From a virus (lineage: Duplodnaviria > Caudoviricetes): a DNA stretch of 64,000 nt. Below are positions 7,056-46,831 of the stretch, piece after piece. The DNA is taken from the IMG/VR virus record IMGVR_UViG_3300044620_001883, positions 128,001 through 192,000 of that record; one strand, 5' to 3'. The translations under genes and the position numbers were made by a program. A model generated the notes under the pieces. It was not told the origin of the DNA. It worked only from the letters and a program-made list of their open reading frames with translations, and made no database searches. Position 1 is the first letter of the stretch. Each line of letters begins with the position of its first letter.

Positions 7056-8123
7056 ATGAGTCTAGCCCCCTGGTTCCACAAACAAGCTGGCGTTGGTGAG
7101 AGTGCCTTCAAGGCCCCCACTGCGGCGGCAGCCCCAGCGGCTTCAAATCCAGCGACGGCGCCGACGACACCAGCGGCGACACCGGGTGCAAGTAAACCCC
7201 CAGCAGCGACTCCTTTGGGTTCGGCTCCACCTCCGGCACCACAGGCTCCTTTGGGTGCGTTGCCCCCTTTACCCCCTCCCCCATTAGGTGCTGGTGCTCC
7301 ACTTCCTGACCCGTGGGGCGGTGGAACTCCAACCAGCACACCACCGCCGGCGGCACCTGTGGGTTCACTCCCGCCGTCAACCCTGGGAGCTGGAGACTCT
7401 GGAGGTACACCGTCACCTTCATATCCTGCTGCTTTGGGCGACCCAACCAAGACCACAATGCCGCCACCAGCCCCCGCCTTGGGGGGTGACACCTCATCTG
7501 TCCCGCCTGCCGCATCTCCTCCGGCTCCGGGTGGAACACCTCCACCCTCCCAGGTTCCTTCTGGTCACGAGTTTTCCACGATACCGGGCGCCCCAGGACC
7601 GGACGCCAAAACGGCATTTCCAGCAGACAGCCCGGAAGGGATCGCGGAACGAACTCGGCCTGGTGTCCTGCAGGATCGCGGCCTCGTCGCAGGTCCAACA
7701 GCTCCCCAGCAGATGGACCAACAACAGATGGACAACGCTGTTGGGAATTTGACAGCCGGAACTGGCTTCAACGGCAGTGCTACTTCCATGAAACCCGAGG
7801 ACGTGATGGCGCGCGCTACTGCCATCAATGACAAGTACCGGAAAGACAACCCAACGTTTGCAGCAGCCAACCCACATCCGGACGACCCGCGCAACAAGGT
7901 GGCCCACATCCAGGTCAGCACCCATATTCTCAAACGTGCGGCAGCAGTACCTTCCGTGGCTGCCGTGTCCTCCACCAAGCCTCCCGTGGGGCCGGTGATC
8001 CTGAACCCGAAGTTCCTGAGGGCTCTGCCCAAGCAGGCTCCAGCCAAACCCCCGGCGAAGCCAGCCAAGGATCCTGAACCCAAACCGGTTCCTGGTGCGG
8101 TCAAGAAAGCAGCTTGGTATTGA
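7056..8123 (+). CDS. Pro/Ala-rich disordered putative virion internal protein
   Basis: Low complexity; WFHKQAG, HIQVSTHILKRAAA and VKKAAWY motifs. Confidence 0.6.
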   Translation: MSLAPWFHKQAGVGESAFKAPTAAAAPAASNPATAPTTPAATPGASKPPAATPLGSAPPPAPQAPLGALPPLPPPPLGAGAPLPDPWGGGTPTSTPPPAAPVGSLPPSTLGAGDSGGTPSPSYPAALGDPTKTTMPPPAPALGGDTSSVPPAASPPAPGGTPPPSQVPSGHEFSTIPGAPGPDAKTAFPADSPEGIAERTRPGVLQDRGLVAGPTAPQQMDQQQMDNAVGNLTAGTGFNGSATSMKPEDVMARATAINDKYRKDNPTFAAANPHPDDPRNKVAHIQVSTHILKRAAAVPSVAAVSSTKPPVGPVILNPKFLRALPKQAPAKPPAKPAKDPEPKPVPGAVKKAAWY

Positions 8124-8148
8124 CTAGTACTCGCAGGGCCGGGACATT
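8120..8148 (+). promoter_or_regulatory. sigma70-like promoter (leaderless)
   Basis: TTGACT-N17-GACATT, ATG 5 nt downstream. Confidence 0.55.
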
Positions 8149-8153
8149 CCAGT

Positions 8154-8474
8154 ATGCCTGACGCCTCCAAACCTCCCAGCTGGATTGCCATGATCGGTGG
8201 CACGGTCATGGGGTTGTTAACCGGCAGCCTGACCATGTACACGTGGTTGGAGCACCGTATCGAGAGTAGGGTCGAAGCAAAGGTCATGATCGAAGTCAGG
8301 ATCTCGGCTATTGAGGCTGCCCTGAAGACCAACAAGGATGCAGCCTGGCTCGCGGATGAGAACCTCGTGAAGCGACTCGATATCCAGCAGGAGCGAATTA
8401 CACAACTGGTCAGCAAGATCGATGGACTGCACGTGACCGTCACACCAAGCGCAAGTTCAACTACACCCCCATGA
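8154..8474 (+). CDS. single-TM coiled-coil membrane protein (holin-like candidate)
   Basis: WIAMIGGTVMGLLTGSLTMY TM followed by a heptad-rich helix. Confidence 0.5.
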   Translation: MPDASKPPSWIAMIGGTVMGLLTGSLTMYTWLEHRIESRVEAKVMIEVRISAIEAALKTNKDAAWLADENLVKRLDIQQERITQLVSKIDGLHVTVTPSASSTTPP

Positions 8475-9088
8475 TGTACAAACAGGCAGGACCAGTACAG
8501 TTGCTTGGCAAGTTGCTTGGGCGTGCAGCGCCTGCCGCGAAGGGGTTGGGGTCCTTCGAACGCTACCCTGCCTTGATGGCTGCGCGCCGCAAGACGATCG
8601 TGATCCCCAATGCTCGCGCCAGCTCGTTTCCAGGTCCTGACACTTGGGGCCAGTACCGTCCCAAGGATGACCTACTGCTAGTGCGCGGTGGGCTTTCGCC
8701 GACTGTAGCACGACAATCACTGCGGCACGAGCTTACCCACATGGCCCAAATCAAGGCACCACACACCTGGCTGGACAGAACTGTGCAGGCCGGCATATCT
8801 CAGCCGGGTAATAGCTTCAAGTCAGGCCTACGCAGCATCCTGGCTGAGTTCGGTGCCCGCACTGGAGAGACCAAAGGCCTGATGGCTCCTGTCAGAGGAG
8901 CATTGAAGTTGTGGGAGACCGCACCGTCCTATGCACGAGACTTCAAACGGTTGGGTGCCCGCGCGGCGGCCCTGCCGTACCAACTCCTGACTGCAGCCCC
9001 TATTGTCGGCGGACTGGCAACGGCAGGTGGTTTGGGTCTAAAGCTCAAGAGCCTGACGGACCAGCTCAACCAACCTAAGACACGATGA
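8471..9088 (+). CDS. putative Zn metallopeptidase (HExxH)
   Basis: LLLVRGG...SLRHELTHMAQ; N-terminal MYKQAG. Confidence 0.55.
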   Translation: MMYKQAGPVQLLGKLLGRAAPAAKGLGSFERYPALMAARRKTIVIPNARASSFPGPDTWGQYRPKDDLLLVRGGLSPTVARQSLRHELTHMAQIKAPHTWLDRTVQAGISQPGNSFKSGLRSILAEFGARTGETKGLMAPVRGALKLWETAPSYARDFKRLGARAAALPYQLLTAAPIVGGLATAGGLGLKLKSLTDQLNQPKTR

Positions 9089-9129
9089 AGCCAGAGGCAA
9101 AAACACTTCCGCACGGTTTCTGACAAAAC

Positions 9130-9158
9130 TTGCAGAGTGTCCCGCTTGTTGCGACAGT
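9130..9158 (+). promoter_or_regulatory. sigma70-like promoter (leaderless)
   Basis: TTGCAG-N17-GACAGT, ATG 9164 5 nt downstream. Confidence 0.5.
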
Positions 9159-9163
9159 TGAGG

Positions 9164-9781
9164 ATGGCAACGCCGTTTCAACTTCTCTCTCACGTCAAAC
9201 GCGCAGGCGCGACCCCTCCCCCACCGGAAGGTAAACAGTACGACCTGCCCGTTCCGATCCCTCCAACATCCAAGACGGACAAAACCGTAGCAGCCTTGCC
9301 GCCTGGTAAGCAGTACGCGTTGCCGGTTCCGCCAACCCCGCAAGCCCCTACGCTTGCATCACCCATCCTGACACGCTCAGGACAACCAGCTCCGGCAGGT
9401 TGGGCACCTCCCAAACAGGAACTCCCACCCGTGCCGGTTCCTGCGGAGGTGCGGCAGGGTCTACCATCATTCGGGCAGTGGTTACAGTCGCGCGCGGTCG
9501 ATCTGTCAACAATGTTGGTCCCGTACCAAGCGCAGATCAATCAGGTCTTCGGACACAAGCAAGCTTCCCACATCCGCGTCAGCTCGTACTTGCTCAAGCG
9601 CGCGACCCTCGGAGCAGCAAAGTCCGTAGCTGGACAGCAGCCGGGACTCGGAGGGCATTTGAAGCAAGCGCCTAAGATGTTCCAACCACCCGCTGCACCG
9701 ACCGCTGTGCAGCCGACCCAGCCAACAGCGCCTGACTTCAAGATCAAAGCTCCTGCCGGGATCGCGGCAGCACGAGGCTAA
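9164..9781 (+). CDS. Pro-rich putative virion internal protein
   Basis: Internal duplication GKQYxLPVP; HVKRAG and HKQASHIRVSSYLLKRA motifs. Confidence 0.55.
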   Translation: MATPFQLLSHVKRAGATPPPPEGKQYDLPVPIPPTSKTDKTVAALPPGKQYALPVPPTPQAPTLASPILTRSGQPAPAGWAPPKQELPPVPVPAEVRQGLPSFGQWLQSRAVDLSTMLVPYQAQINQVFGHKQASHIRVSSYLLKRATLGAAKSVAGQQPGLGGHLKQAPKMFQPPAAPTAVQPTQPTAPDFKIKAPAGIAAARG

Positions 9782-9784
9782 TTT

Positions 9785-10792
9785 ATGAAACCGACGCACA
9801 TCCAAGTCAGTTCATACATGGTGAAGCAGGGATTGGCTAGGTGGCGTACTGCAAAGGCGTTGGCGGCTTTCATGCGCCGCCCACCAACACCGGCAATAAC
9901 GTCTAATATACATCCACCCAAGTGGGGAGATCCGACCCGCCTGACTCAGCTGCAAATAGCCAAGTCACATATGAGCTCGAACCCTTACGCACCAGCGCAA
10001 GAGATGTCAGGGCTGCTGAAGCAGGTAAACAAATTGGACGACGTGACACCGCTAGAGACACTCGGCGCAAACATGCTTCAGAATAAGCAAACTCCGGGTT
10101 CACTGTTTCGTGGAATGAGAACCTTAACTCCCAACATTGAAGCAGGTAGCTGGGTCCATGGAACTCCGTCCCCTGCTCTGGCCGCCAAGTACGGACCGAA
10201 TCGTTCAGCTCCCGCGTTGGTTGCTGAATACCAGGCAAGCCCACTTAATCGCTACAGCGCTGACTTTTTACAGGACATGGACGTCACCAAGCAAATGGGG
10301 CGTACTTGGGACAGTGTTGTTTCCGCGCTGCGTCAACCACCGAATTTGCGTGGCGATGCATTCGGCTTAGCCCGCACGAACAAGAATTTATGGGCGCGCC
10401 ACCAACTCAAGCTAGCTGACCCAAGAGAGTTGGTGACCGGCAAGGGACTGGAGCCGGCTGACAGCTGGGTACCTTGGTATGAGACCAAACTACAATCGGG
10501 TATCAACAATTTCCGCAATTGGGCATTTGTACATGACGGTAAACTGCTTCGCGTACCGGCAAATAAACAATGGCAGCACATACTGCGTAATATCACGTCC
10601 CCTGTGTACAAGGGATCGTGGGCCTCACGTATCCCGCAGGGGATGGAGCAGTTTATGGGGCGGCAGGGTTTTGAGTCAAGATTAGGTAGTGAATGGTTTA
10701 GAATTCAGGAGTACTTGCGTGGTGGGGTGGAAAAATTGAAACAGTTGTTACCCGCCCGTACGCCCCATGGCGCTGCTGCTCCCATGAAGTAA
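9785..10792 (+). CDS. putative virion cargo protein, possibly ADP-ribosyltransferase-like
   Basis: N-terminal HIQVSSYMVKQG tag; LFRGMR...HGTPSPALAAKY...VAEY weakly resembles ART core motifs. The ORF is solid; the ART call is tentative. Confidence 0.4.
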   Translation: MKPTHIQVSSYMVKQGLARWRTAKALAAFMRRPPTPAITSNIHPPKWGDPTRLTQLQIAKSHMSSNPYAPAQEMSGLLKQVNKLDDVTPLETLGANMLQNKQTPGSLFRGMRTLTPNIEAGSWVHGTPSPALAAKYGPNRSAPALVAEYQASPLNRYSADFLQDMDVTKQMGRTWDSVVSALRQPPNLRGDAFGLARTNKNLWARHQLKLADPRELVTGKGLEPADSWVPWYETKLQSGINNFRNWAFVHDGKLLRVPANKQWQHILRNITSPVYKGSWASRIPQGMEQFMGRQGFESRLGSEWFRIQEYLRGGVEKLKQLLPARTPHGAAAPMK

Positions 10793-10828: not shown

Positions 10829-13800
10829 ATGGCCGACAAGACTAGACCAGATGTAATCGCCTTTGACCTTGATGGAACACTGGCCCTACGCCAGGAGCCC
10901 TTCAATCCGTACTCGGTAGGGGAACCCGTGGAGGCAATCTTGGACCTGGCCCTGAAGGCCATCCGGGATGGGAAGCGCACCTTGTGCTTCACGGCCCGCG
11001 CCAGTTCCAAGGATCCCAAGATGCACAGCACGGTGCGGAAGTGGCTCGATGATCACGGGTTAGAGAAGATGAAGATCACGAACATCAAGGATCCAACGAT
11101 AACCCGCTTCTACGATGACCGGGCCATCGGGGTCGTGCCAGACAAGGGCGAGCTTCTGACCAAGGTCGCGGCCGAGATGGTTCGGAAGACCAGGATGGTG
11201 GAAGTTCAGGATGACCACTGCCCACACTGTGACCACAAGTTTACCGAGAAGGGCTACCCGCGTCCTGACTTCGAACAGGCCGAGCGGGAAGGCATTGAGC
11301 CCATGGACGCTGACCAGCTGTGTCCCAACTGCCAAGGGATCGTGGATGACCCGGAGATGTCCGACGAGAGAATTGAGAACTACCAGGGCTTCGGCGGGGA
11401 ATCCATGAAGGAGATCCTGTACCAGCAGCGGGAGAAGAAGCGGGCTATCCTGGCTGCACGGCGGGCCAAGAAGGCCTCCACCTCGCCGGAGAACGTTTCC
11501 GTTCCAGGGCGAGGAGAGGAGAAGCAGGCCGCCGGGGACAAGCTCCGGAACCTGTGGGTACGTCGGGGTCAATGTCCCGAATGCGGTGGCAAGCCCAAGG
11601 ACTTCGAGTTCTTCAAGACCCACTCGAACGCGGAGTGTCGTGACTGCGGTCACAGCTTCGATGTCGATGCTGAACGTAAGAAGCAGGCTTCCTGGGACCA
11701 AGCCCAAGAGAAGTCCGCCTCAGTACAGATCGCAGGCCGTACTGGCCCGCATGGAATCCTGGAAGCCCTCAAGGCCCTGAACCTCGATGACCTCGAGAAG
11801 CAAGCCCGTGCTGACATTGCCTCCGGGAAGATCACCAAGCGTGACCGTGGGGTCAAGATGCTCAATGCCCTCGAAGGACTGCGCCGCAATGAGATCAAGC
11901 CCGAGGAGCTGATGATCAAGCGGGTGCCAGTGCTGCCACCGGCCTTCAGGCCCTTCTCGTTCCTGGGCACCACCTACATTCCCGGTGATGCCAACGAGCT
12001 CTACCAGGACCTCTTCAAGCACCGCGCCATCCATGACGAGACGCTCTCGACCCTGGGGGAAGGCGGCGCAGCCCTGACGCGCATGAATCTCCTGAATGCC
12101 ACGAGGGCCCTGTACGGTTACGGAGACCCCGTGTCCCCGAAGCTCAAGGAGCGTGGACCCTCGGGCTACTTGGACCAGATCCTCAACGAAGGGCCAAAGC
12201 ACTGCTACTCTGCAGACACAGAAATCCTGACGCGGGGTCAAGGGTGGGTGAAGTTCTCTGAACTGGAGCGTGGGGCGCAGGTGGCCACCATAAATCCCAA
12301 GACCCTGGCATTCGAATGGCAGACCCCTACGGAGTACATCGATTCAGAATACAGCGGTACCATGAAGCGGTTCGTAGTTGGTGGGCGTACAGGCAAGCGC
12401 ATGGACCTTTTGGTCACACCCAATCACCGGATGTGGACCAAAAAGCGCGACAAGAAGAATAAGATGACGGACGACAATTTGCGCACTGGTTGGTATGCGA
12501 TGCGGGCCGACGAGTTGGTCGCGCACAAAGTACGTCACTTCGCTATGGTGGGCGCAGGTGGTTGGGAGGGCTCGGTCGAACTGCCAGAGTGTGCACGCCA
12601 CTGGCCCGCTGAACTGTTTGCACGTTTTATCGGTTGGTACATTTCAGAAGGAAGCACACACGAATGTGGTACGATCGCTACAATCTGGCAGACCGAAGCA
12701 AACCCCGATTACTGCTTGGAACTAGACGCTTTGTTCCGAGACATCAGCAATGTACAAGAGGTGTCCAAAGTGAACATGCACCGGGAGGAGCCTCGCTTCA
12801 GCGGTTACGGTTGGAGCATCAAGGGATGTAGACCGTTGGTTGCATGGTTGGAACAGCATTGCGGCAAAGGTTCCAATTTCAAGCGCATACCTGCTCTAGC
12901 ACGTGATTGGAATCAGACCCTGTTGGGGTTGCTGTTCGACACCTACCTGAAGGGGGATGGCGCTAAGCGCGTTCCATGGCAGAAGCGTGCAAACGCGTCC
13001 GACAACTACCGGTTCCGTGATGCTCTTACAGATTCACATCATGCTTTCATTACCACAAGTCCAAAGCTGTTCGATGACCTGATGGAAGTAGGCTTCAAAC
13101 TTGGTATTTGTATCCGCCGTAGAAAAGAGCACCCGCATCTGTATCCAGAGCACCATGCTGAGAAGTACAATGGTGTGCTCATTGGGCGCTGGTTCGTTCA
13201 AACCGAGTCGAACGGGACAGTTCAGGATGTGCAGTACAACGGTCACATTTATTGTGTCGCTGTACCTAACGGGCTGCTTGTGGTGCGCCGCAACGGTGCC
13301 GCCGTCGTCAGTGGTAACTCCTTCGTTCAACGCCGGCTCCTTTCCAAGCCCATCGACAACGTGGGCCGCAGTGTCATCACGGTCGATCCAGACCTGGGCC
13401 TCGATGAAGTCTCGATCCCCCGTGAGATGGCCTGGACGCTCGCCGGTTCCAAGGTACAGCGGCGGCTGGCCATGATGGGCATGAGTCCCGCCCAGACCAT
13501 CAAAGCCGTGAAGGACCGTGACGCCTTTGCCAGCCGCACCCTGGAGCTTGAGCTGAAGGACACACCCTTCATCCTTTCCCGCGCTCCAGCCTGGCACAAG
13601 TTCAACGCCGTCGGGCAGTATGCCCGGATCCACGACGGTCCGCACATTGCCATCAACCCCTATATCACGGCCGGTCAGAACGCCGACTTCGACGGGGACC
13701 AGATCAACGTCTCCCTGCCGGTCCTGCCAGAATCCATCAAGGAGACCAAGGAGAAGTTGATGGCCAGCAAGATGCTGTTCTCCATCAAGAACCAGGACGA

Positions 13801-13960
13801 CGTGGTCCCGGTGCCTAAGCATGAGCAAATTTTAGGCATCTGGAATGCCAACAAACGTCCGCCTACGAAGCTGCACAGCTTCGCTTCAGGACAGGAAGCG
13901 CTTGCGGGTATGCAGAGCGGCGCTGTAAAGTTGGAGGACGACATTGAAATTCCGGACTAG
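10829..13960 (+). CDS. rpoC: RNA polymerase beta' catalytic fragment with N-terminal HAD-like and Zn-ribbon modules and an intein
   Basis: VPVLPPAFRP, LLSKPIDNVGRSVI, SRAPAWH and GQNADFDGDQ motifs; N-terminal FDLDGTLA..FTAR..YDDRA; two CxxC..CxxC ribbons. Confidence 0.92.
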   Translation: MADKTRPDVIAFDLDGTLALRQEPFNPYSVGEPVEAILDLALKAIRDGKRTLCFTARASSKDPKMHSTVRKWLDDHGLEKMKITNIKDPTITRFYDDRAIGVVPDKGELLTKVAAEMVRKTRMVEVQDDHCPHCDHKFTEKGYPRPDFEQAEREGIEPMDADQLCPNCQGIVDDPEMSDERIENYQGFGGESMKEILYQQREKKRAILAARRAKKASTSPENVSVPGRGEEKQAAGDKLRNLWVRRGQCPECGGKPKDFEFFKTHSNAECRDCGHSFDVDAERKKQASWDQAQEKSASVQIAGRTGPHGILEALKALNLDDLEKQARADIASGKITKRDRGVKMLNALEGLRRNEIKPEELMIKRVPVLPPAFRPFSFLGTTYIPGDANELYQDLFKHRAIHDETLSTLGEGGAALTRMNLLNATRALYGYGDPVSPKLKERGPSGYLDQILNEGPKHCYSADTEILTRGQGWVKFSELERGAQVATINPKTLAFEWQTPTEYIDSEYSGTMKRFVVGGRTGKRMDLLVTPNHRMWTKKRDKKNKMTDDNLRTGWYAMRADELVAHKVRHFAMVGAGGWEGSVELPECARHWPAELFARFIGWYISEGSTHECGTIATIWQTEANPDYCLELDALFRDISNVQEVSKVNMHREEPRFSGYGWSIKGCRPLVAWLEQHCGKGSNFKRIPALARDWNQTLLGLLFDTYLKGDGAKRVPWQKRANASDNYRFRDALTDSHHAFITTSPKLFDDLMEVGFKLGICIRRRKEHPHLYPEHHAEKYNGVLIGRWFVQTESNGTVQDVQYNGHIYCVAVPNGLLVVRRNGAAVVSGNSFVQRRLLSKPIDNVGRSVITVDPDLGLDEVSIPREMAWTLAGSKVQRRLAMMGMSPAQTIKAVKDRDAFASRTLELELKDTPFILSRAPAWHKFNAVGQYARIHDGPHIAINPYITAGQNADFDGDQINVSLPVLPESIKETKEKLMASKMLFSIKNQDDVVPVPKHEQILGIWNANKRPPTKLHSFASGQEALAGMQSGAVKLEDDIEIPD
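12203..13318 (+). mobile_element. intein with LAGLIDADG homing endonuclease (372 aa)
   Basis: Starts CYSADTEILT, ends YCVAVPNGLLVVRRNG..VVSGN followed by Ser; FIGWYISEG and YLKGDG blocks. Confidence 0.92.
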
Positions 13961-13969
13961 CCTGACCCC

Positions 13970-15970
13970 ATGACCTTTTTACCACGTACATTACTGAAGC
14001 TTGCCACTGTCGACAACACGGCAAGCTATGATCCGGCTAAGGGAATGCCAAGTCCTGTGGTGACACCAGGCACGGATGATCCCAATGAGATCGTCACAAG
14101 ACTGCCCGCTCCTGCGCCGACGACAACGACAACCACCACGCCAACTACCACCGCAACCACCACGCCAACCACCACGCCAACTACCACCGCACCAAACAAC
14201 GGTGCTCCCACTTCGGCTCCGGTTGGCAACGCCGCTTTTGCAGGTAATGCTGGCACACGTCCCAACGTCTCCACTTGGGAGCCGGGCAACGGAGGTCTGG
14301 CAGTTCCGGTTGGCGACCCTGCGGATTTCAAGGCCATGTCGCGACCAGATCTCGCGAATTTTTACAAAGGCTGGGGTGGGCGGGCCTACACGGACCGTGC
14401 GCCAGGAACAGTGGGCACACCAGTTCAGCAAATGGGCAGTGCGGATCTGTACAGCCCGACACCAGGGAATCCTGGAGGGACACATGTCAGCGCCACTATT
14501 GATCCAGAGAGTTCCCTTCGTAAAGGTGGGGATCCCAACAAGCGTGTCCTGAACTCCCAGTACGGAACTGGGAGTGTGACATTCAACAATCCCTCAAACT
14601 GGGCCACGGCCCCAGACCGCAAGACCGTCATTGATGGTAAGACCTACACAGGCCCCAATGCCTTCCGTGACCATCTGGAACCGATCGTGGCGAAGCAGCA
14701 GGAGGCGGCCAAGACACAAGCTGTCGCGGAGGTCGACAAGGCCAACCCTGGGTACTTGTTCAAAGGACCTGCAATGGCAGACCCACGTGGACCGGCCTAT
14801 CCGGATGTGCCAAACCTGCGTAACCAAACCATGGCGGGTTCCCGTATTGGAGATTCGCCTTATCAGTCCCTCACGGATCCAGATCGCGTGAACCCCGCGA
14901 TCGGCATCTCGGAAGGACGCCAACAGTACATCAATGATCTTGGTTCTTTGAACCTACCCGCGCGTGTGCCTGCTCCACAGCAGTTGTTGGCTGGAGGCAA
15001 ACCTGGAGGCAAACCTGGAGGCCAGCCCGCCGCAGAGCCCTATACGTCAATGCCTGTGAATCCGCAGTTCAAGGTTCCTAGTACCTTTGATCCATCTCGG
15101 AATACATTTATTTCATCAAACAGGCCAGGTAGTTATGATCCAGCATTAGCGGCGATGCGGGAAGGCGACCCGTTTGGTGCGAACGTCCATGGACAGCCTT
15201 CGCATTCAGGGAGAAAGCTGACAGGATTTGAATCAGACGCGGCGGCCACCAAGGACTGGGCAGCGAATCCAGTAGAGCCGAAGCTTCTGAAGAAACAGAG
15301 TAATACTGTTTCTCCTTTGGATGATCCGAATTCCTTGCTTAACCTGGACACGTCGGGACCGCTGATTCGGGAGCTTCCGGCCAAGCCTGCATCACCAGTA
15401 GCTGCGGCCAAGCCTGCATCACCCCCAGCCGTTGTCACTCCAAAGCCTGCTGCTCCAGCAACACCGAAGGTAGATGATTCACTCGGATGGGAAGCCGCTA
15501 CGCCGCCCCCAAATGCTTCAGCTCCCAAGCTAAAACCAAGTGACAGCGGTACACTCGGTTGGGAGTCTGGCCCTATGCCTCCCACACAAGGACAGCAGGA
15601 TGCGGCGAACATATTGAGGAACCAAGGTAACACGGAATTCCGTCTCCTCAACAACTGGCCAGGGAGTGATTGGGATCACCTGAAGAAGCAATTCCCAGAA
15701 GTGAAACCTGAGCAGTACAGGACAACAAATGCGCTCATTGATGCTTATCGAGCAGTCCTGCCGCCAGTCAAATCTGGTGCCCTCCACTTCGCGCTCCAGT
15801 GTTCCAAGTTCGCCAGTGCGATCATGCACACCCCCACCGGCCTTGAACCTCAGGGTGGGCTCGCAAAGCCGAAGATCAAGATGCCAATTGGCCCGGGGCG
15901 TCCGCAGGTCGCATTCGAGCACGCCGCCCCCGCCAAGCCCTCCATAACCCCTCTCACTCCTGCCTCATGA
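13970..15970 (+). CDS. Pro/Thr/Gly-rich putative virion internal protein
   Basis: 666 aa low-complexity protein; LLKLAT near the N-terminus, SKFASA near the C-terminus. Confidence 0.6.
   Translation: MTFLPRTLLKLATVDNTASYDPAKGMPSPVVTPGTDDPNEIVTRLPAPAPTTTTTTTPTTTATTTPTTTPTTTAPNNGAPTSAPVGNAAFAGNAGTRPNVSTWEPGNGGLAVPVGDPADFKAMSRPDLANFYKGWGGRAYTDRAPGTVGTPVQQMGSADLYSPTPGNPGGTHVSATIDPESSLRKGGDPNKRVLNSQYGTGSVTFNNPSNWATAPDRKTVIDGKTYTGPNAFRDHLEPIVAKQQEAAKTQAVAEVDKANPGYLFKGPAMADPRGPAYPDVPNLRNQTMAGSRIGDSPYQSLTDPDRVNPAIGISEGRQQYINDLGSLNLPARVPAPQQLLAGGKPGGKPGGQPAAEPYTSMPVNPQFKVPSTFDPSRNTFISSNRPGSYDPALAAMREGDPFGANVHGQPSHSGRKLTGFESDAAATKDWAANPVEPKLLKKQSNTVSPLDDPNSLLNLDTSGPLIRELPAKPASPVAAAKPASPPAVVTPKPAAPATPKVDDSLGWEAATPPPNASAPKLKPSDSGTLGWESGPMPPTQGQQDAANILRNQGNTEFRLLNNWPGSDWDHLKKQFPEVKPEQYRTTNALIDAYRAVLPPVKSGALHFALQCSKFASAIMHTPTGLEPQGGLAKPKIKMPIGPGRPQVAFEHAAPAKPSITPLTPAS
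14120..14190 (+). repeat. coding Thr-rich tandem repeat (PTTT)n
   Basis: Repeated ACCACCACGCCAAC(T/C) units in frame. Confidence 0.75.
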
Positions 15971-31843: not shown

Positions 31844-34834
31844 ATGCGCGTCAAAGCCATCCAGTATGCGGTCAATTCGGTGCTACCTCCAGAGCTGCGC
31901 GACTATCAACGCCCTCTGGACGGTAAAGGGATCGAGCGTCTGATGCACCAGGTGGCGGTAAGCTACCCGGACAAATATGCGGAGGTGCTCCGTCACATCG
32001 GTGACCTGGGACGCAACGCCGCGTACTGGCAAGGTGAGACCATGGGACTCGATGATCTGCGCGACGTCATCGACACGCCCGGCTATTTGCGCCAGATGGA
32101 CACGGAGGTCGACGCAGCCACACGAGGCCTCAAGGATCCGCAGGCGATCCGGGAAGCCCGGGAGGGTGTCTGGCATAAATGGGCGTCCAAGCTGGAGCGC
32201 GACACCATGACGGCCGCGCTGGTGAAGAACAACGCGATCGGTGAATCTGTGGCATCCGGAGCACGCGGCAAGCCTGTGCAGGCCCGCGCTATGCTTTCCA
32301 CGCCGGCGATCTTCGAAGACAGCCAGGGTCGCACCATCCCGCTCTTCGCCCGCAGTTCTTACTCCCAGGGTGTGTCTCCTGGTGCCTGGCTTGCTGGGAC
32401 CTACGGCGCCCGCAAGGCAGTCGTGAGTACAAAGGTCTCGACTGCCAAAGGTGGGTTCTTGGCGAAAATGCTCACACAGGTTGCTGCTCCTCTGATCGTG
32501 ACTGAGCCAGACTGCGGAACCACCAACGGCATCGATCTTTCCAAAGACGCGCCCGACCTGCGCAACCGCTTCCTGGCCGCCCCTGCCGGTGGGCTTGACG
32601 GTGGGTCTCTTCTGGACCGCAAGGGCATCGCGCAGATCAAAAACAAGTTCAAGGGCGACACCATCCTGGTGCGATCTGCTCTGACCTGCCAGGCCCCTCG
32701 TGGTGTTTGCGCCAAGTGTATCGGGGCAGACCCGCGCGGACAGCTCCACCGTGTTGGCTACGCCGCAGGGATCACAGCCTCGAACGCGCTCGGAGAACCT
32801 GCTTGTTTGCATGGTAGCACCCTGGTGCGCATGGCAGATGGAAGTGTCAGACCGATCACCGCTATCCGAGTTGGTGACATGGTGCTAGGCGCGGATATAC
32901 AAGGGGTGCTGCGTCCAACAAGGGTCATGAATACGTTCGTGAACGGTATGCGTCACTGCTTTAGAACGGTTGTGCGTAAGGGCTTCGGTGCCAAGTCTGA
33001 TCGTATCGAGTTAATTTCCACAGCAGAACATAAAGTTCTAAGCTTCAAAGGCAAACGTCACAAGAAGGCGTATCCAACTATCGCAAGCATAGAAATGCCA
33101 GCAGAAGTAAACCCCCAACACAGCGTGTACATGGCAGCGGGTTGCCCTGATTTCGTAGGCGTTGTCGAGCCGTGGGCCATGCTGCTCGGGGCACTTACAG
33201 GTGACGGTTGTTACACCGGAGGAAAAGGCTCTGATGGCAAAGGCATCGGTTTTTCCTGCTACGATCAGCTTCTCACTGAAGACATGCAGAGAGCGCTACA
33301 TGCACACGGATTGAAGCTGAGCGGCAGCGAAGCAAGCGAGTTTCGTGTAAACATGCAAGACCAATATAGCGCGTTCGAATACATCGATGGTAAATTAGTA
33401 CGTAACAAGCTGCGTGCGGTGCTTATCAAAGAAGGTATGTGGGGGCAGTACAGTGGTGAAAAAACACCTCCAAGAAACATTCAGAGGTGGGACAACGCAT
33501 CCGTAGCAGCTTACATCGGTGGGTTGCTGGCCACAGATGGGTGGATCACCACAACCGGAAGTGTTGCTGGGTTTAGCAGCAACTCCCAGCTGCTGCTGCA
33601 GACTGTCAAGGACCTGTGTGAGCTGCGTTTTGGTATCTACGGATCGCGCATAATCCCGAAGTACAAAAGAAAGAAAGGGACCCAACAGTTTTACGCACCA
33701 ACGTTTGAGTTCACGATCTGCGGCGCAGAGAACATGCGAAAGTTGTTCGCGCATATACCTGTGCCAGGTTGCAAACAAGCAAGGCTGCAAAAGAAAGCAC
33801 AGGAACCAACTAAAACACGCATGTGCGCGGGGCGTTTCACCGTGCTTGAGCAAGTGTACTACGGGTTTGAGATGACTTACGACATTGAGGTGGACAACGA
33901 CACCCACCTCTTTGCGCTCGCCAATGGTCTGGTTGTTTCAAACACACAGGCGGCCCTGCGGGAAAAGCACACATCAGGCGCAGCGTCTAAGAAGGCCTCG
34001 TACTCGGGGTTGGATTGGCTGCAGCGGTTCGTGCAGGTGCCAGACAGTTTCCCAGATCGCGCCCCCGTGGCTGAGCAAGATGGGACCGTGACGGTCATGG
34101 AGGCCCCGCAAGGTGGTCACTATGTACACATCGGAGATCAGGAGCATTACGTACCGGCCAACCTGGAAGTAACCGTCAAGACAGGCGAGCGTGTTGAAGC
34201 CGGGCAACCTCTGTCGGAAGGGGTCGTGCGCCCTGATGACGTGGTGCGGTTGCGTGGCGTTGGGGAAGGTCGCCGATACTACAGCGACCGCCTTGGGCAG
34301 ATGTTTGCCGACTCAGGCTTCCGCGCGGACCCGCGCAACGTCGAGCTGATTGCGCGTGCGGCGGTCGATCATGTGCAGATCGACGATCCTGAGGATCTGC
34401 CAGACGGTGTGCTCCCTGACGACACAGTACAGTTCGGGGAGTTCATGCGCAATTACGAGCCCGCCGAGGGATCCCAAATACGGGATATCAAGGAGGCCGC
34501 CGGCCAGTACCTACAGCAGCCCGCCCTCCACTACACACCCGGCACCAAACTCACAGGCAGCATGGTCGAGCGTCTAGGCAAGGCTGGCATCTCGAAGATC
34601 ATGACCAACGAGAAAGCGCCGCCTTTCCACCCCGCAATGGTGCGCCTTCAAACGTCCTCGTTTTCAAATCCGGATTGGCTGGCCAGCTTGTCGACCTCTT
34701 ACCTCGGCAAACAGCTCGCCACGGGAGCGGCGCGCGGGCAGGACACCAACATCGAACACAACATCCACTTTGCACCCCGGCTTGCTGTGGGTGTAGACTT
34801 TGGCAAGAACATCGAAACCACCGGAGAATTTTGA
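31844..34834 (+). CDS. rpoC: RNA polymerase beta' C-terminal fragment with intein
   Basis: SGARG, bridge helix YGARKAVVSTKVSTAKGGFL, DCGT, VRSALTC..GVCAKC, trigger loop ALGEPA/TQAALREKH, jaw domain. Confidence 0.92.
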   Translation: MRVKAIQYAVNSVLPPELRDYQRPLDGKGIERLMHQVAVSYPDKYAEVLRHIGDLGRNAAYWQGETMGLDDLRDVIDTPGYLRQMDTEVDAATRGLKDPQAIREAREGVWHKWASKLERDTMTAALVKNNAIGESVASGARGKPVQARAMLSTPAIFEDSQGRTIPLFARSSYSQGVSPGAWLAGTYGARKAVVSTKVSTAKGGFLAKMLTQVAAPLIVTEPDCGTTNGIDLSKDAPDLRNRFLAAPAGGLDGGSLLDRKGIAQIKNKFKGDTILVRSALTCQAPRGVCAKCIGADPRGQLHRVGYAAGITASNALGEPACLHGSTLVRMADGSVRPITAIRVGDMVLGADIQGVLRPTRVMNTFVNGMRHCFRTVVRKGFGAKSDRIELISTAEHKVLSFKGKRHKKAYPTIASIEMPAEVNPQHSVYMAAGCPDFVGVVEPWAMLLGALTGDGCYTGGKGSDGKGIGFSCYDQLLTEDMQRALHAHGLKLSGSEASEFRVNMQDQYSAFEYIDGKLVRNKLRAVLIKEGMWGQYSGEKTPPRNIQRWDNASVAAYIGGLLATDGWITTTGSVAGFSSNSQLLLQTVKDLCELRFGIYGSRIIPKYKRKKGTQQFYAPTFEFTICGAENMRKLFAHIPVPGCKQARLQKKAQEPTKTRMCAGRFTVLEQVYYGFEMTYDIEVDNDTHLFALANGLVVSNTQAALREKHTSGAASKKASYSGLDWLQRFVQVPDSFPDRAPVAEQDGTVTVMEAPQGGHYVHIGDQEHYVPANLEVTVKTGERVEAGQPLSEGVVRPDDVVRLRGVGEGRRYYSDRLGQMFADSGFRADPRNVELIARAAVDHVQIDDPEDLPDGVLPDDTVQFGEFMRNYEPAEGSQIRDIKEAAGQYLQQPALHYTPGTKLTGSMVERLGKAGISKIMTNEKAPPFHPAMVRLQTSSFSNPDWLASLSTSYLGKQLATGAARGQDTNIEHNIHFAPRLAVGVDFGKNIETTGEF
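32804..33943 (+). mobile_element. intein with LAGLIDADG homing endonuclease (380 aa)
   Basis: Starts CLHGSTLV, ends TYDIEVDNDTHLFALANGLVVSN followed by Thr; LGALTGDG and GLLATDGW blocks. Confidence 0.92.
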
Positions 34835-41993: not shown

Positions 41994-43490
41994 ATGCAAC
42001 CCTCTCTTCTGCAGCGTGAATCTGGCATATCCAAGACCTTCATGGCCCATGACTGGCCAGGACTCGTGGAAGACATGTCAGGGCATCTGACGACATTATT
42101 CGAACGCGGACATATCAAGACTGCCGCGTCGGATCTGTTCAGTCGCAAGGACCTCGACGACCATGCCCCGCCGCCTGGGTACTTTATGATCCATCAGACC
42201 GTGATGGGATCCGAGGAAGGTTACGGATTCAACAACAACGGCGACAGCTACCCGGACGAGACGTTGAAGCGCGACCACCCGACATTCGTCACACACGGCC
42301 GCGTGTACCGGGAGCACCGCAACCGCGACCCCGAGAAAGCCATTGGGGTCATCAAGGCCGCGCGTTACTCGCAGAAGATGCAGCGCGTTGAACTCCTCAA
42401 GCACCTGGAGATCAGCAAAGCCGAGAAGGAGTATGAGATGGCCAAGGCAGGCAAAGAACTGCATGCCAGCATGGCCTGCCGTGTCCCGTTTGACGTGTGC
42501 TCTTGCTGTGAGCAAAAGGCCAAGTACGCAAGCCTGTACTGCAGCCACCTCAAGGAACGCATGATGCAATGGATACCATCATTCAAGAAGTATGCGCATG
42601 CCCGCAATACGATCTGCACCTTCTTCGACTCCAGTGTCGTCGAGAACCCGGCAGCGCGCGAGGCCAAGCACATCGAGTATCGATTCGGCCCGGAACTCCT
42701 GAAGGCAGCCAGCACACGTCCGTCCTTCTCCGGCGCGCAGTGGGCCGAGTTTGAAGGTGTGGATCTTTCCCAACACCTCACCATGAACCAAACCGAGACG
42801 TCTATCCTGCAGAAGCTGGCCAGCATTGAAGCATCGAACGCCCCCGACAGGTATCGGGACAACGTGTCCATGCATGGCTTCGCGAACACACACAACCTGC
42901 GGGATGAAGAGTGGGCGGCAGTGCAAAAGCTGCTGCCGGGTACATTGTTCAATAAACTGGCACGGCGGCGTGTGCTGCTGCCCTTTGATCTGTTTGCCGC
43001 GTACGCGACAGGACGCAATCCGTCCGAGATCCGGAGCGACGCGGACTTCACCAAAGCAGCCAGCATGCTTCCGGGGATTTTCCGGGCGCTGGCCAGCGCG
43101 CTTGAAGGCGGCTCCAGCGGTGGGGGTTGTGGCTGCAATCAAGAGGACATGGACATGTTCAGGGCTTCCTCCAATTCAGCCGCCGCCTTCGATCCCGGCA
43201 GCAGTGATGAGGTGGACAAGGTCATGGACAAAGCGACGGAACAGTTCAGCGCGGAGGCGGAACCGATTCGTCGTCGCGCCATTGTGATGATCACAATCAA
43301 GAAGGCGCAAGCCCGTGGTCCTGTACTTCCAGCACCGGCACCATTGGATCTTCCACCTTTGCTGTCGTTGTACGGGTTGTACAAAATAGCGGCTGTGCGC
43401 GACATGCTGCACCTCGCGCAGGACAACAAACAGGACGTCGAACACGAGCTGCTGCGATGCAGCGTTGACCAGAACTCCTTTGCACTTTAA
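41994..43490 (+). CDS. prohead (capsid maturation) serine protease with Zn-finger insert
   Basis: NNNGDSYP..TF...VYREHRN.D...IG; SMACRVPFDVCSCC...YCSH; FFDSSVVENPA; located upstream of scaffold and MCP genes. Confidence 0.8.
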   Translation: MQPSLLQRESGISKTFMAHDWPGLVEDMSGHLTTLFERGHIKTAASDLFSRKDLDDHAPPPGYFMIHQTVMGSEEGYGFNNNGDSYPDETLKRDHPTFVTHGRVYREHRNRDPEKAIGVIKAARYSQKMQRVELLKHLEISKAEKEYEMAKAGKELHASMACRVPFDVCSCCEQKAKYASLYCSHLKERMMQWIPSFKKYAHARNTICTFFDSSVVENPAAREAKHIEYRFGPELLKAASTRPSFSGAQWAEFEGVDLSQHLTMNQTETSILQKLASIEASNAPDRYRDNVSMHGFANTHNLRDEEWAAVQKLLPGTLFNKLARRRVLLPFDLFAAYATGRNPSEIRSDADFTKAASMLPGIFRALASALEGGSSGGGCGCNQEDMDMFRASSNSAAAFDPGSSDEVDKVMDKATEQFSAEAEPIRRRAIVMITIKKAQARGPVLPAPAPLDLPPLLSLYGLYKIAAVRDMLHLAQDNKQDVEHELLRCSVDQNSFAL

Positions 43491-45856: not shown

Positions 45857-46831
45857 ATGAGACCTCTAGTTATGCACACCCCAGGTGAGTGGACCGACGC
45901 TGATAACGCCGGACTGCTCCAATCCCTCACCGAAGCCCCCGATGGACCAGTCAAGCTGGCCTCCACAGGTGCTACGGACTACACCCGTGTGATTCTCCGT
46001 GAATCCTCGGTCCTCCCAGCCATCCAGGCTCCACAGACCATCACGATCGACCGCCTCAAACGCCGCACCTCCAGTGCCGGTGGTGATGTGCCTGAAATCG
46101 GCTTGGTTGAATGCGAGCGTGAACCCGGCTCCCCCGGCTCCCGCACTGTCCCGTTCTCTGCTGGTCCTGTCCAGCAGACCTACCGCGGGGAAGTGTACTA
46201 CATTCGTATCAGCACGGACGAAACTCCGGAGCTGTACAAGAACGTCGACCAGCTCGGCCTTTACCAGATGGACCTCCGTCAGGTGATCACCGACAACCTC
46301 CTCAAAGACCTCGACAACCTCGTGGACTTCCGGTACTTCCAGACCGTGAAGGACATCACCGGTTCCGATGTCGACGCTGACGGTGCCGGCGGTTATCGCC
46401 AGTATCGTGAAGTCGTGGGCGGCATCACCCGCAACACCTACCGCGAGACGCTTCGTCCGCTGCAGGATGCAACCCTCAACAACGGCGTGTTCGTCATGGG
46501 TCGTCAGACCGCAAACGACTTCCTCGGTTGGGATCGCAACGCCATCGGTGGTGACCTCGCTGAACGCCTCATGCAAGAAGGCCTGAATGCTCTGGACCGT
46601 TTCCAGATCTTCGGCGTCGCGCACGTGGCATCCATCAAGAAGACGCTGTTCCCGAAAGGTCACGTCTTCCACTTCGCTCCCCCGAACTTCCTGGGTCGTT
46701 ACTACGAATACCAGGCACCTACGGTGTACGTGAAGAAGGAACGCGACATCATCTATGTCTACGCCAAACGCAAGTATGGCTACGGCATCGGCAATGAAGC
46801 GGCAGTGGCCCGCACGGTGTTCCAGGACTAA
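45857..46831 (+). CDS. major capsid protein (HK97 fold)
   Basis: 324 aa, strongly biased codon usage, follows protease-scaffold-decoration genes and precedes a strong terminator; PVKLAS near the N-terminus. Confidence 0.8.
   Translation: MRPLVMHTPGEWTDADNAGLLQSLTEAPDGPVKLASTGATDYTRVILRESSVLPAIQAPQTITIDRLKRRTSSAGGDVPEIGLVECEREPGSPGSRTVPFSAGPVQQTYRGEVYYIRISTDETPELYKNVDQLGLYQMDLRQVITDNLLKDLDNLVDFRYFQTVKDITGSDVDADGAGGYRQYREVVGGITRNTYRETLRPLQDATLNNGVFVMGRQTANDFLGWDRNAIGGDLAERLMQEGLNALDRFQIFGVAHVASIKKTLFPKGHVFHFAPPNFLGRYYEYQAPTVYVKKERDIIYVYAKRKYGYGIGNEAAVARTVFQD

Follow-up and report, generated by a model that had tools for sequence, protein, structure and literature searches.

In a 200,255-bp IMG/VR phage record (IMGVR_UViG_3300044620_001883) from an uncultured lake phage, with an estimated completeness of 98%, the gene encoding the N-terminal half of the RNA polymerase (RNAP) subunit β' begins with about 300 residues of other domains. 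The window, the whole stretch of 64,000 nucleotides analyzed here, comprises bases 128001-192000 of that record, and the gene in question, P0001, is a single open reading frame (ORF) within it. The encoded protein is ordered as a haloacid dehalogenase (HAD) phosphatase (residues 1-111), Zn-ribbon module 1 (Zn-1, residues 112-217), Zn-ribbon module 2 (residues 232-298) and a β' core that starts at about G305. Attention was drawn to region 10829-11730, which encodes residues 1 to about 301, by a sequence-only reading that described a HAD-like domain and two Zn ribbons with KxA linkers, some 300 residues in all, ahead of the β' core. That description is borne out, in one ORF. The motifs it quoted are all in place: DLDGT at residue 13, FTAR at 54, YDDRA at 95 and TKVAA at 111 in the HAD part; CPHC at 131, CPNC at 165, KKAS at 214, EKQAA at 231, CPEC at 249 and CRDC at 270 in the Zn part; and KKQAS at 284, EKSAS at 294 and GPHGILEALKAL at 306 around the junction.

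Modules of the N-terminal extension

10829-13960, plus strand: whole gene P0001, N-terminal extension and N-terminal half of β' (single ORF, 1043 residues)
10829-11161, plus strand: capless HAD phosphatase, PNKP-type, residues 1-111 (conserved motifs, PDB profile, AlphaFold2 model, fold matches)
11162-11173, plus strand: K112-V-A-A at the HAD/Zn-1 boundary, candidate cleavage site (K112 and A114 at least 90% conserved; left swap breakpoint relative to P0003)
11162-11479, plus strand: Zn-ribbon module 1, residues 112-217, a conserved cassette of about 105 residues (41 protein clusters; modeled with high local confidence, 91-96)
11468-11479, plus strand: K214-K-A-S at the end of module 1, candidate cleavage site (right swap breakpoint; helix end, with a disordered stretch after it)
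11522-11722, plus strand: Zn-ribbon module 2, residues 232-298 (13 relatives; local model confidence 74-86; phrog_23069 at 4e-5)
11711-11722, plus strand: K295-S-A-S, junction motif before the β' core, candidate maturation site (same column in 14 of 14 orthologues)

The HAD module carries all four motifs of its superfamily. In a profile of 56 relatives, D13 and D15 of motif I (DxDxT) are invariant and T17 is present in at least 90%; in motifs II-IV, K87 is invariant, and T55, D96 and D97 are each present in at least 90%. Polymerase-fused copies likewise keep the catalytic residues unchanged or almost so, and the module is catalytically intact as judged by its motifs. An AlphaFold2 (AF2) model of residues 1-310 was built on a 42-row alignment, with a mean predicted local distance difference test score (pLDDT) of 86 and a predicted template modeling score (pTM) of 0.49; residues 11-110 adopt the HAD fold at pLDDT 93-98. 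A PDB profile search with the module returned 1xpj at 4e-6 and Foldseek returned 2obb at 7e-4, and both also returned T4 Pnkp. The 3'-phosphatase of T4 Pnkp is the top structural match (Z 10.8, root-mean-square deviation 2.5 over 101 residues), followed by Pnkp1 of the Pnkp1/Rnl/Hen1 RNA-repair complex (Z 10.7) and T4 PNK (Z 10.3), with the next match at 8.7. Motifs, fold and Pnkp matches all uphold the HAD assignment of the sequence-only reading. The module appears closest to polynucleotide 3'-phosphatases, although both phosphatase activity and substrate are predictions from the model and its matches. It has the capless HAD core and catalytic motifs in common with T4 Pnkp and Pnkp1 but, unlike them, is without a kinase domain. 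Searches returned about 1,700 representative protein hits for the domain, which occurs either as a stand-alone protein of 105-150 residues or as one bead of larger proteins that reach 2087 residues.

The Zn-1 cassette consists of K-x-A-A-E-M-V-R, HCPHCDH, CPxC, a basic helix and a closing K-x-A-[AS], and its invariant residues are four Cys, one His, one Phe and one Glu. Many of the 41 clusters that contain it are non-polymerase proteins. In the AF2 model, pLDDT dips to 77 over residues 111-120, which hold K112-V-A-A, and returns to 91-96 over residues 121-220, where the Zn module ends in a long basic helix that reaches K214-K-A-S. Residues 221-229, which separate K214 from K232, are disordered (pLDDT below 50). 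K232-Q-A-A opens the second module, and K285-Q-A-S and K295-S-A-S close it. Its residues 232-278 are modeled at pLDDT 74-86 as a helix from K232-Q-A-A followed by the second Zn ribbon, and residues 279-302 at pLDDT 75-81 as a helix bearing both closing motifs. Such a low pTM next to high local pLDDT points to well-predicted domains that are not packed on one another. Searches of NCBIfam, PHROGs, PDB profiles and Atlas with the Zn-1 family gave generic zinc-ribbon noise only, and in the structural searches matches to HAD took up the results, so that Zn-1 was barely probed. The HAD and Zn-1 cassettes were not found in genomes G001, G003 and G005.

Comparison of orthologues for variable N-terminal modules, proposed together with the sequence-only reading, revealed an extension that is both modular and variable. 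All 14 β'-core orthologues have an N-terminal extension, which ranges from about 180 to about 1100 residues and differs in content. The cassettes include HAD, 2H phosphoesterase (PF13563), InPase (PF18823) and assorted Zn ribbons; 2H is found in P0015, P0020 and the gene at locus L041, and InPase in P0015. HAD and Zn-1 cassettes of the same kinds also occur in non-polymerase multi-module proteins. P0003 and P0001 share 92-95% identity on either side of the stretch between K112 and K214; within it, P0003 has an unrelated Gly/Ala/Pro-rich segment of about 175 residues where P0001 has the Zn-1 cassette. At L041, an InPase/Zn-1 protein (P0018), a GIY-YIG gene and a 2H::β' gene stand in a row, which suggests that such fusions arise from neighboring cargo genes. 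In distant relatives, including Salmonella phage Arash, β and β' are fused and the core directly follows the β C-terminus without an extension. By these sequence comparisons, the cassettes are independent and swappable, with K-x-A-[A/S/G] exactly at their borders.

Two other explanations of the architecture were rejected. A misassembly or frameshift artefact is contradicted by the same continuous architecture in the 14 orthologues, and an internal translation start that would yield an extension-less β' finds no in-frame ATG, GTG or TTG near the junction.

Some further observations concern proteins related through their cassettes. The GIY-YIG gene between P0018 and the 2H::β' gene (L041:11982-12695) encodes a homing endonuclease and may have split a longer fusion. 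P0012, P0013 and P0027 are big non-polymerase proteins with shared cassettes, in which K-x-A-[ASG] sites are mostly 60-220 residues apart. P0013, for example, has 11 such sites in 1436 residues, and these proteins look like polyproteins under the same rule. Across the whole genome, C..C is the most over-represented residue pair at spacing 2 (79 versus 31.7, z = 8.4), which indicates a proteome unusually rich in Zn-ribbon-like motifs.

The K-x-A motif and the prohead protease

The junction between extension and core is marked by the same motif throughout. In all 14 orthologues, K-x-A-[SA] lies 8-12 residues ahead of the conserved T-G-P at which the core starts, and the sequences upstream of it are unrelated. 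A junction K-x-A is also present in L002 and L041, with K-K-S-S instead in L003. Residues 1-310 of P0001 contain five K-x-A-[ASG] sites where composition predicts 0.44, and none of 20,000 shuffles reached five. Over the 14 proteins, the extensions hold 59 sites (13.2 expected) and the cores one (9.3 expected); the binomial p of 6e-17 overstates independence, since the 14 proteins are related. Inside 136 HAD cores there is a single site versus 15 expected, and 38% of HAD C-termini bear the motif within a span of 21 residues, versus a background of 8%.

The enrichment extends to the head genes. The whole genome has 133 sites versus 63 expected, with the excess in about a dozen proteins that fall mostly in head/cargo clusters, and P0001 itself has K-x-A-tagged genes around it, in a region upstream of the head module. 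In an unbiased scan of all residue pairs at spacings 0-2, K.A was the top pair in head-cluster proteins (49 versus 16.6, z = 8.0; runner-up z = 4.4). In two related complete genomes, it again led the gapped pairs of the head clusters (z = 6.8 and 4.5). In the proteome-wide scan, K.A was not among the top gapped pairs, and the signal appears only with restriction to the head cluster. The residue after K.A is A, S or G in 66% of head/cargo cases versus 35% elsewhere. Several neighbors of the β' gene start with short leaders that end in K-x-A: MSLAPWFHKQA-G, MMYKQA-G, ...LLSHVKRA-G and MTFLPRTLLKLA-T. In the fused-polymerase relative G003 (L028-L037), the proteome-wide scan puts L.E (z = 5.7) and I.E (z = 4.6) among the most enriched gapped pairs, and K.A still tops the head cluster.

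Two head genes in the window bear directly on the motif.

41994-43490, plus strand: prohead protease P0155, 498 residues, with a gp21-fold domain at about residues 43-237 (fold search)
45857-46831, plus strand: major capsid protein, with K-L-A-S near its N-terminus (Atlas features, 0.98 to capsid families)

The protease was identified by fold search only; sequence searches with P0155 against PDB and Pfam returned nothing. Its N-terminal 300 residues are modeled at pLDDT 82, and the only significant PDB matches of the model are three chains of T4 gp21 (5jbl; E 1.5e-4, probability 1.00). Residues H67 and S159 are invariant in 47 sequences, and the family comprises 104 protein clusters. P0155 matches phrog_18299 at 0.006 and is conserved with Arash gp222, a virion protein. 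Conserved K-x-A-[AS] motifs bracket the folded domain at about residues 42 and 237, and a further one downstream, at 274, is also conserved; such bracketing is the pattern that would be expected of a self-trimming prohead protease. The K-x-A of the capsid protein falls in one conserved N-terminal column across five related genomes at 28-34% identity.

Among the homologues of the protease, about a dozen (P0158, P0162, P0171, P0193, P0197 and others) are about 860-930 residues long, and approximately nine of them have Hint and/or LAGLIDADG matches. These long homologues would hold inteins inside a head-maturation protease, which is seemingly uncommon.

Proposed processing and alternative explanations

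The enrichment and conservation of K-x-A suggest that it is a protease recognition motif. On the strength of these sequence patterns, it seems likely, with a probability of roughly 0.55, that P0001 is a beads-on-a-string precursor that is packaged and cut at K-x-A by the prohead protease, and that its enzymes are freed and injected. The precursor would enter the prohead together with the other polymerase subunits, where the gp21-fold protease would cut at K-x-A, probably after Ala. Cutting would free the phosphatase and the Zn modules and leave a β' that starts just before the clamp coiled-coil, and at DNA ejection the polymerase and freed enzymes would pass into the host. The cassettes of the orthologues (HAD 3'-phosphatase, 2H and InPase) would do early work on nucleic-acid ends or nucleotides. 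Candidate roles are RNA end-healing, removal of defense signals or signaling nucleotides, and clearance of inorganic pyrophosphate (PPi); these would fit the three enzymes, each of which works on phosphoester ends or nucleotides. The sequence-only reading had likewise proposed a virion-packaged RNAP made as a polyprotein. A modular and variable extension, a junction motif in all 14 orthologues, head-cluster enrichment, a gp21-fold protease and an Arash homologue found in virions argue for that proposal, and from them we infer both packaging and cleavage.

A broader version of this proposal is tentative, with the odds against it. In that version, the β' half of a packaged RNAP would serve as a chassis for exchangeable counter-defense or RNA-end enzymes, freed by a gp21-fold protease specific for K-x-A-[A/S/G], and the Zn cassette of about 105 residues would be a new adaptor or cargo domain.

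Several points weigh against processing of P0001 in the prohead. The putative cleavage rule rests on sequence statistics, and the orthologues are related, so their counts do not represent independent events. The predicted helix at pLDDT 75-81 contains K285 and K295, with no obviously open loop, and K-x-A-A also forms the first, conserved turn of the Zn-1 cassette, which perhaps makes its conservation partly structural. There is a single β' in the genome, and any later or cytoplasmic transcription would need a working uncut precursor. The motif shows no depletion in the other polymerase subunits, and Arash is without an extension. Virion mass spectrometry of Arash detected 116 proteins, many of them enzymes, and its authors raised the matter of carry-over (PMC10585845). 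As for a partner in RNA repair, the RNA ligase family PF09414 has no match in the genome; PF09511 has none either, but its control also matched nowhere, so that search was uninformative and the absence of a ligase is not shown.

Alternatively, the extension may stay attached to β' as a polymerase accessory. The phosphatase would then act on transcripts, templates or PPi, the Zn ribbons would replace the missing Zn-binding N-terminus of β', and K-x-A would be a linker or helix cap. Such an arrangement is not without precedent. Fusions of a phosphohydrolase to phage RNAP exist, as with the HD phosphohydrolase fused to a β fragment in Bacillus jumbo phages (PMC7824862), the virion RNAP β of phage SPN3US functions with its long N-terminal region uncut (PMC5694885), and in the available text of PMC5512222 InPase near polymerases is proposed to clear PPi. 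Moreover, the genome has one RNAP only, and the gene lacks the first ~270 residues of β' with their Zn-binding domain. Nevertheless, an attached accessory is unlikely. The cassettes differ in almost every orthologue, the fused β::β' relatives have none, and the same cassettes are found in non-polymerase proteins. The motif is common to capsid, scaffold-like and protease proteins, and the AF2 scores describe domains that are not packed together.

It is quite improbable that the extension is a mere long propeptide, one that targets β' to the prohead or silences it and is chopped at K-x-A and expelled, with the phosphatase idle after cleavage. Invariant or nearly invariant catalytic residues in the HAD module, and orthologue cassettes that are recognizable enzymes (2H and InPase), point to selection for activity and not for bulk. 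This argument has to be set against giant-phage propeptides of 111-275 residues, which have several internal sites, are chopped and mostly leave the head, and against the position of the extension directly ahead of the clamp coiled-coil. The clamp coiled-coil is the main sigma docking site in bacterial RNAP.

Finally, that the K-x-A motifs are recombination or gene-fusion scars between mobile cassettes without a protein-level role is very improbable: the swap breakpoints of P0003 do fall exactly at the motifs, but a four-residue protein motif offers too little DNA homology to recombine, and the motif is also found at the start of head proteins with a single domain and on the flanks of the protease domain and is depleted within folded cores.

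The prohead processing proposed for P0001 can be compared with several known systems. The sequence-only reading knew of no such fusion in cellular RNAPs. This claim stands in part, as no report of a HAD/Zn-ribbon extension on β' was found in the literature; the β propeptide of phage 201phi2-1 and the HD::β of Bacillus jumbo phages are precedents of a more general kind. According to Thomas et al. (2010), as relayed in PMC5694885, the prohead protease removes a 275-residue N-terminal propeptide from the 201phi2-1 virion RNAP β (gp274/3), with the cut at TFE-275; the SPN3US homologue stays uncut (PMC5694885). Both systems would involve a packaged multisubunit RNAP subunit whose long N-terminal part is cut off by the prohead protease, with processing that varies among relatives. 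Propeptides of 111-254 residues that hold several internal sites are on record in giant phages. As relayed there, the 201phi2-1 subunit is β and not β', belongs to a phiKZ-type polymerase, has a motif ending in Glu and has a propeptide for which that text reports no enzyme domain. P0001, by comparison, has recognizable swappable enzyme and Zn cassettes, K-x-A rather than x-x-E and an Arash-type polymerase.

Polyvalent proteins, in the available text of Iyer et al. (2017; PMC5512222), unite InPase, 2H, N4-type virion polymerase and further domains; injection and processing are predicted for them. P0001 resembles them in having the HAD module, two Zn modules and β' in one ORF amid head/cargo genes. 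It differs in its carrier, the β' half of a multisubunit RNAP, and in the proposed cutting, for which the prohead protease would act in trans on a linear motif. Neither HAD nor the Zn-1 cassette is among the domains named in that text. No in-cis peptidase or metallopeptidase was found by Pfam or PHROGs in P0001 or in the extensions of its orthologues.

The processing of internal proteins and Alt by T4 gp21, and herpesvirus assemblin, involve the same protease fold, with cargo trimmed at a short linear motif in the prohead. Assemblin also cuts after Ala before Ser. In T4, the motif is L/I-x-E and leaders of about 10-20 residues are removed, whereas here whole folded domains would be freed and P3 would be Lys. 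No report was found in the literature of a gp21-fold protease with specificity for K-x-A followed by A, S or G.

The closest cultured polymerase is that of Arash, with gp206 (a fused β::β'N) and gp216, and the last ~383 residues of gp206 are 31-34% identical to the core of P0001. In both phages the polymerase gene adjoins portal and head genes. Unlike P0001, Arash has β' directly after β, and neither an extension nor a K-x-A precedes the core. In virion mass spectrometry of Arash, no protein was detected more often than gp206 (3516 spectra), and gp216 is also abundant (PMC10585845).

If the proposed processing of P0001 is correct, it would link packaged multisubunit phage RNAPs with injected polyvalent cargo proteins, which are usually treated apart. 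K-x-A would then be a simple rule that predicts the mature virion proteome of a large clade of uncultured phages. New early enzymes could join the virion without a new packaging signal, by fusion ahead of a protein that is already packaged. The small PNKP-like phosphatase family and the uncharacterized Zn cassette would be probable early infection factors.

The β' core, its inteins and neighboring genes

11723-12202, plus strand: β' core part 1, clamp coiled-coil and PVLPPAFRP region, residues 299-458 (matches Arash gp206 from residue ~1142)
12203-13318, plus strand: intein with LAGLIDADG endonuclease, residues 459-830, 372 residues (between GPKH and SFVQRRLL; Hint_2 match; intein-type tblastn hits)
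13319-13960, plus strand: β' core part 2, with the catalytic NADFDGDQ loop at 13679-13702 (Pfam PF00623; phrog_25354)
31844-34834, plus strand: β' C-terminal half, a separate gene 18 kb downstream with its own intein

The core of P0001 is, by its sequence matches, the N-terminal half of a bacterial-type RNAP β'. Rpb1 domain 2 (PF00623) matches at 62.3 bits versus a cut-off of 25.3, with NADFDGDQ at residue 951, and a whole-genome search found the DFDGD segment in a single copy in the 200-kb genome. Only positions 187-238 of Rpb1 domain 1 match in the gene, and the canonical first ~270 residues of β', including the Zn-binding domain, are missing from it. Positions 6-51 of Rpb1 domain 1 weakly match (E = 0.007) the end of the β C-terminal gene (G000:C1:80937-81074), 47 kb upstream of the window. 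It seems from this match that the ancestral β::β' split lies inside β', with a drastically shortened N-terminal region.

The 372-residue intein in the core was not part of the sequence-only reading. Its site is a clean gap between GPKH and SF[VI] in intein-less orthologues, and it is missing from the close orthologues P0002, P0003 and P0004. Its C-terminus is G-N, not the usual H-N. P0007, P0011 and P0021 have an intein at another site, after the DFDGD loop, and the intein of the β' C-terminal half (Hint/LAGLIDADG) covers about residues 313-700.

Pfam and PHROGs returned no matches for the neighboring genes at 7056-10792 and 13970-15970, nor for most head genes. The gene at 13970-15970 encodes a 666-residue orphan protein without family matches, whose leader is MTFLPRTLLKLA-T; at residues 472-495, K-P-A-S occurs twice and is followed by K-P-A-A. 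No near-identical DNA was found among cultured phages. One orthologue, P0004, is recorded as a hypothetical protein in a metagenome-assembled genome assigned to a Fluviibacter sp., on an 11-kb contig; this assignment may be a binning artefact or may hint at a freshwater betaproteobacterial host.

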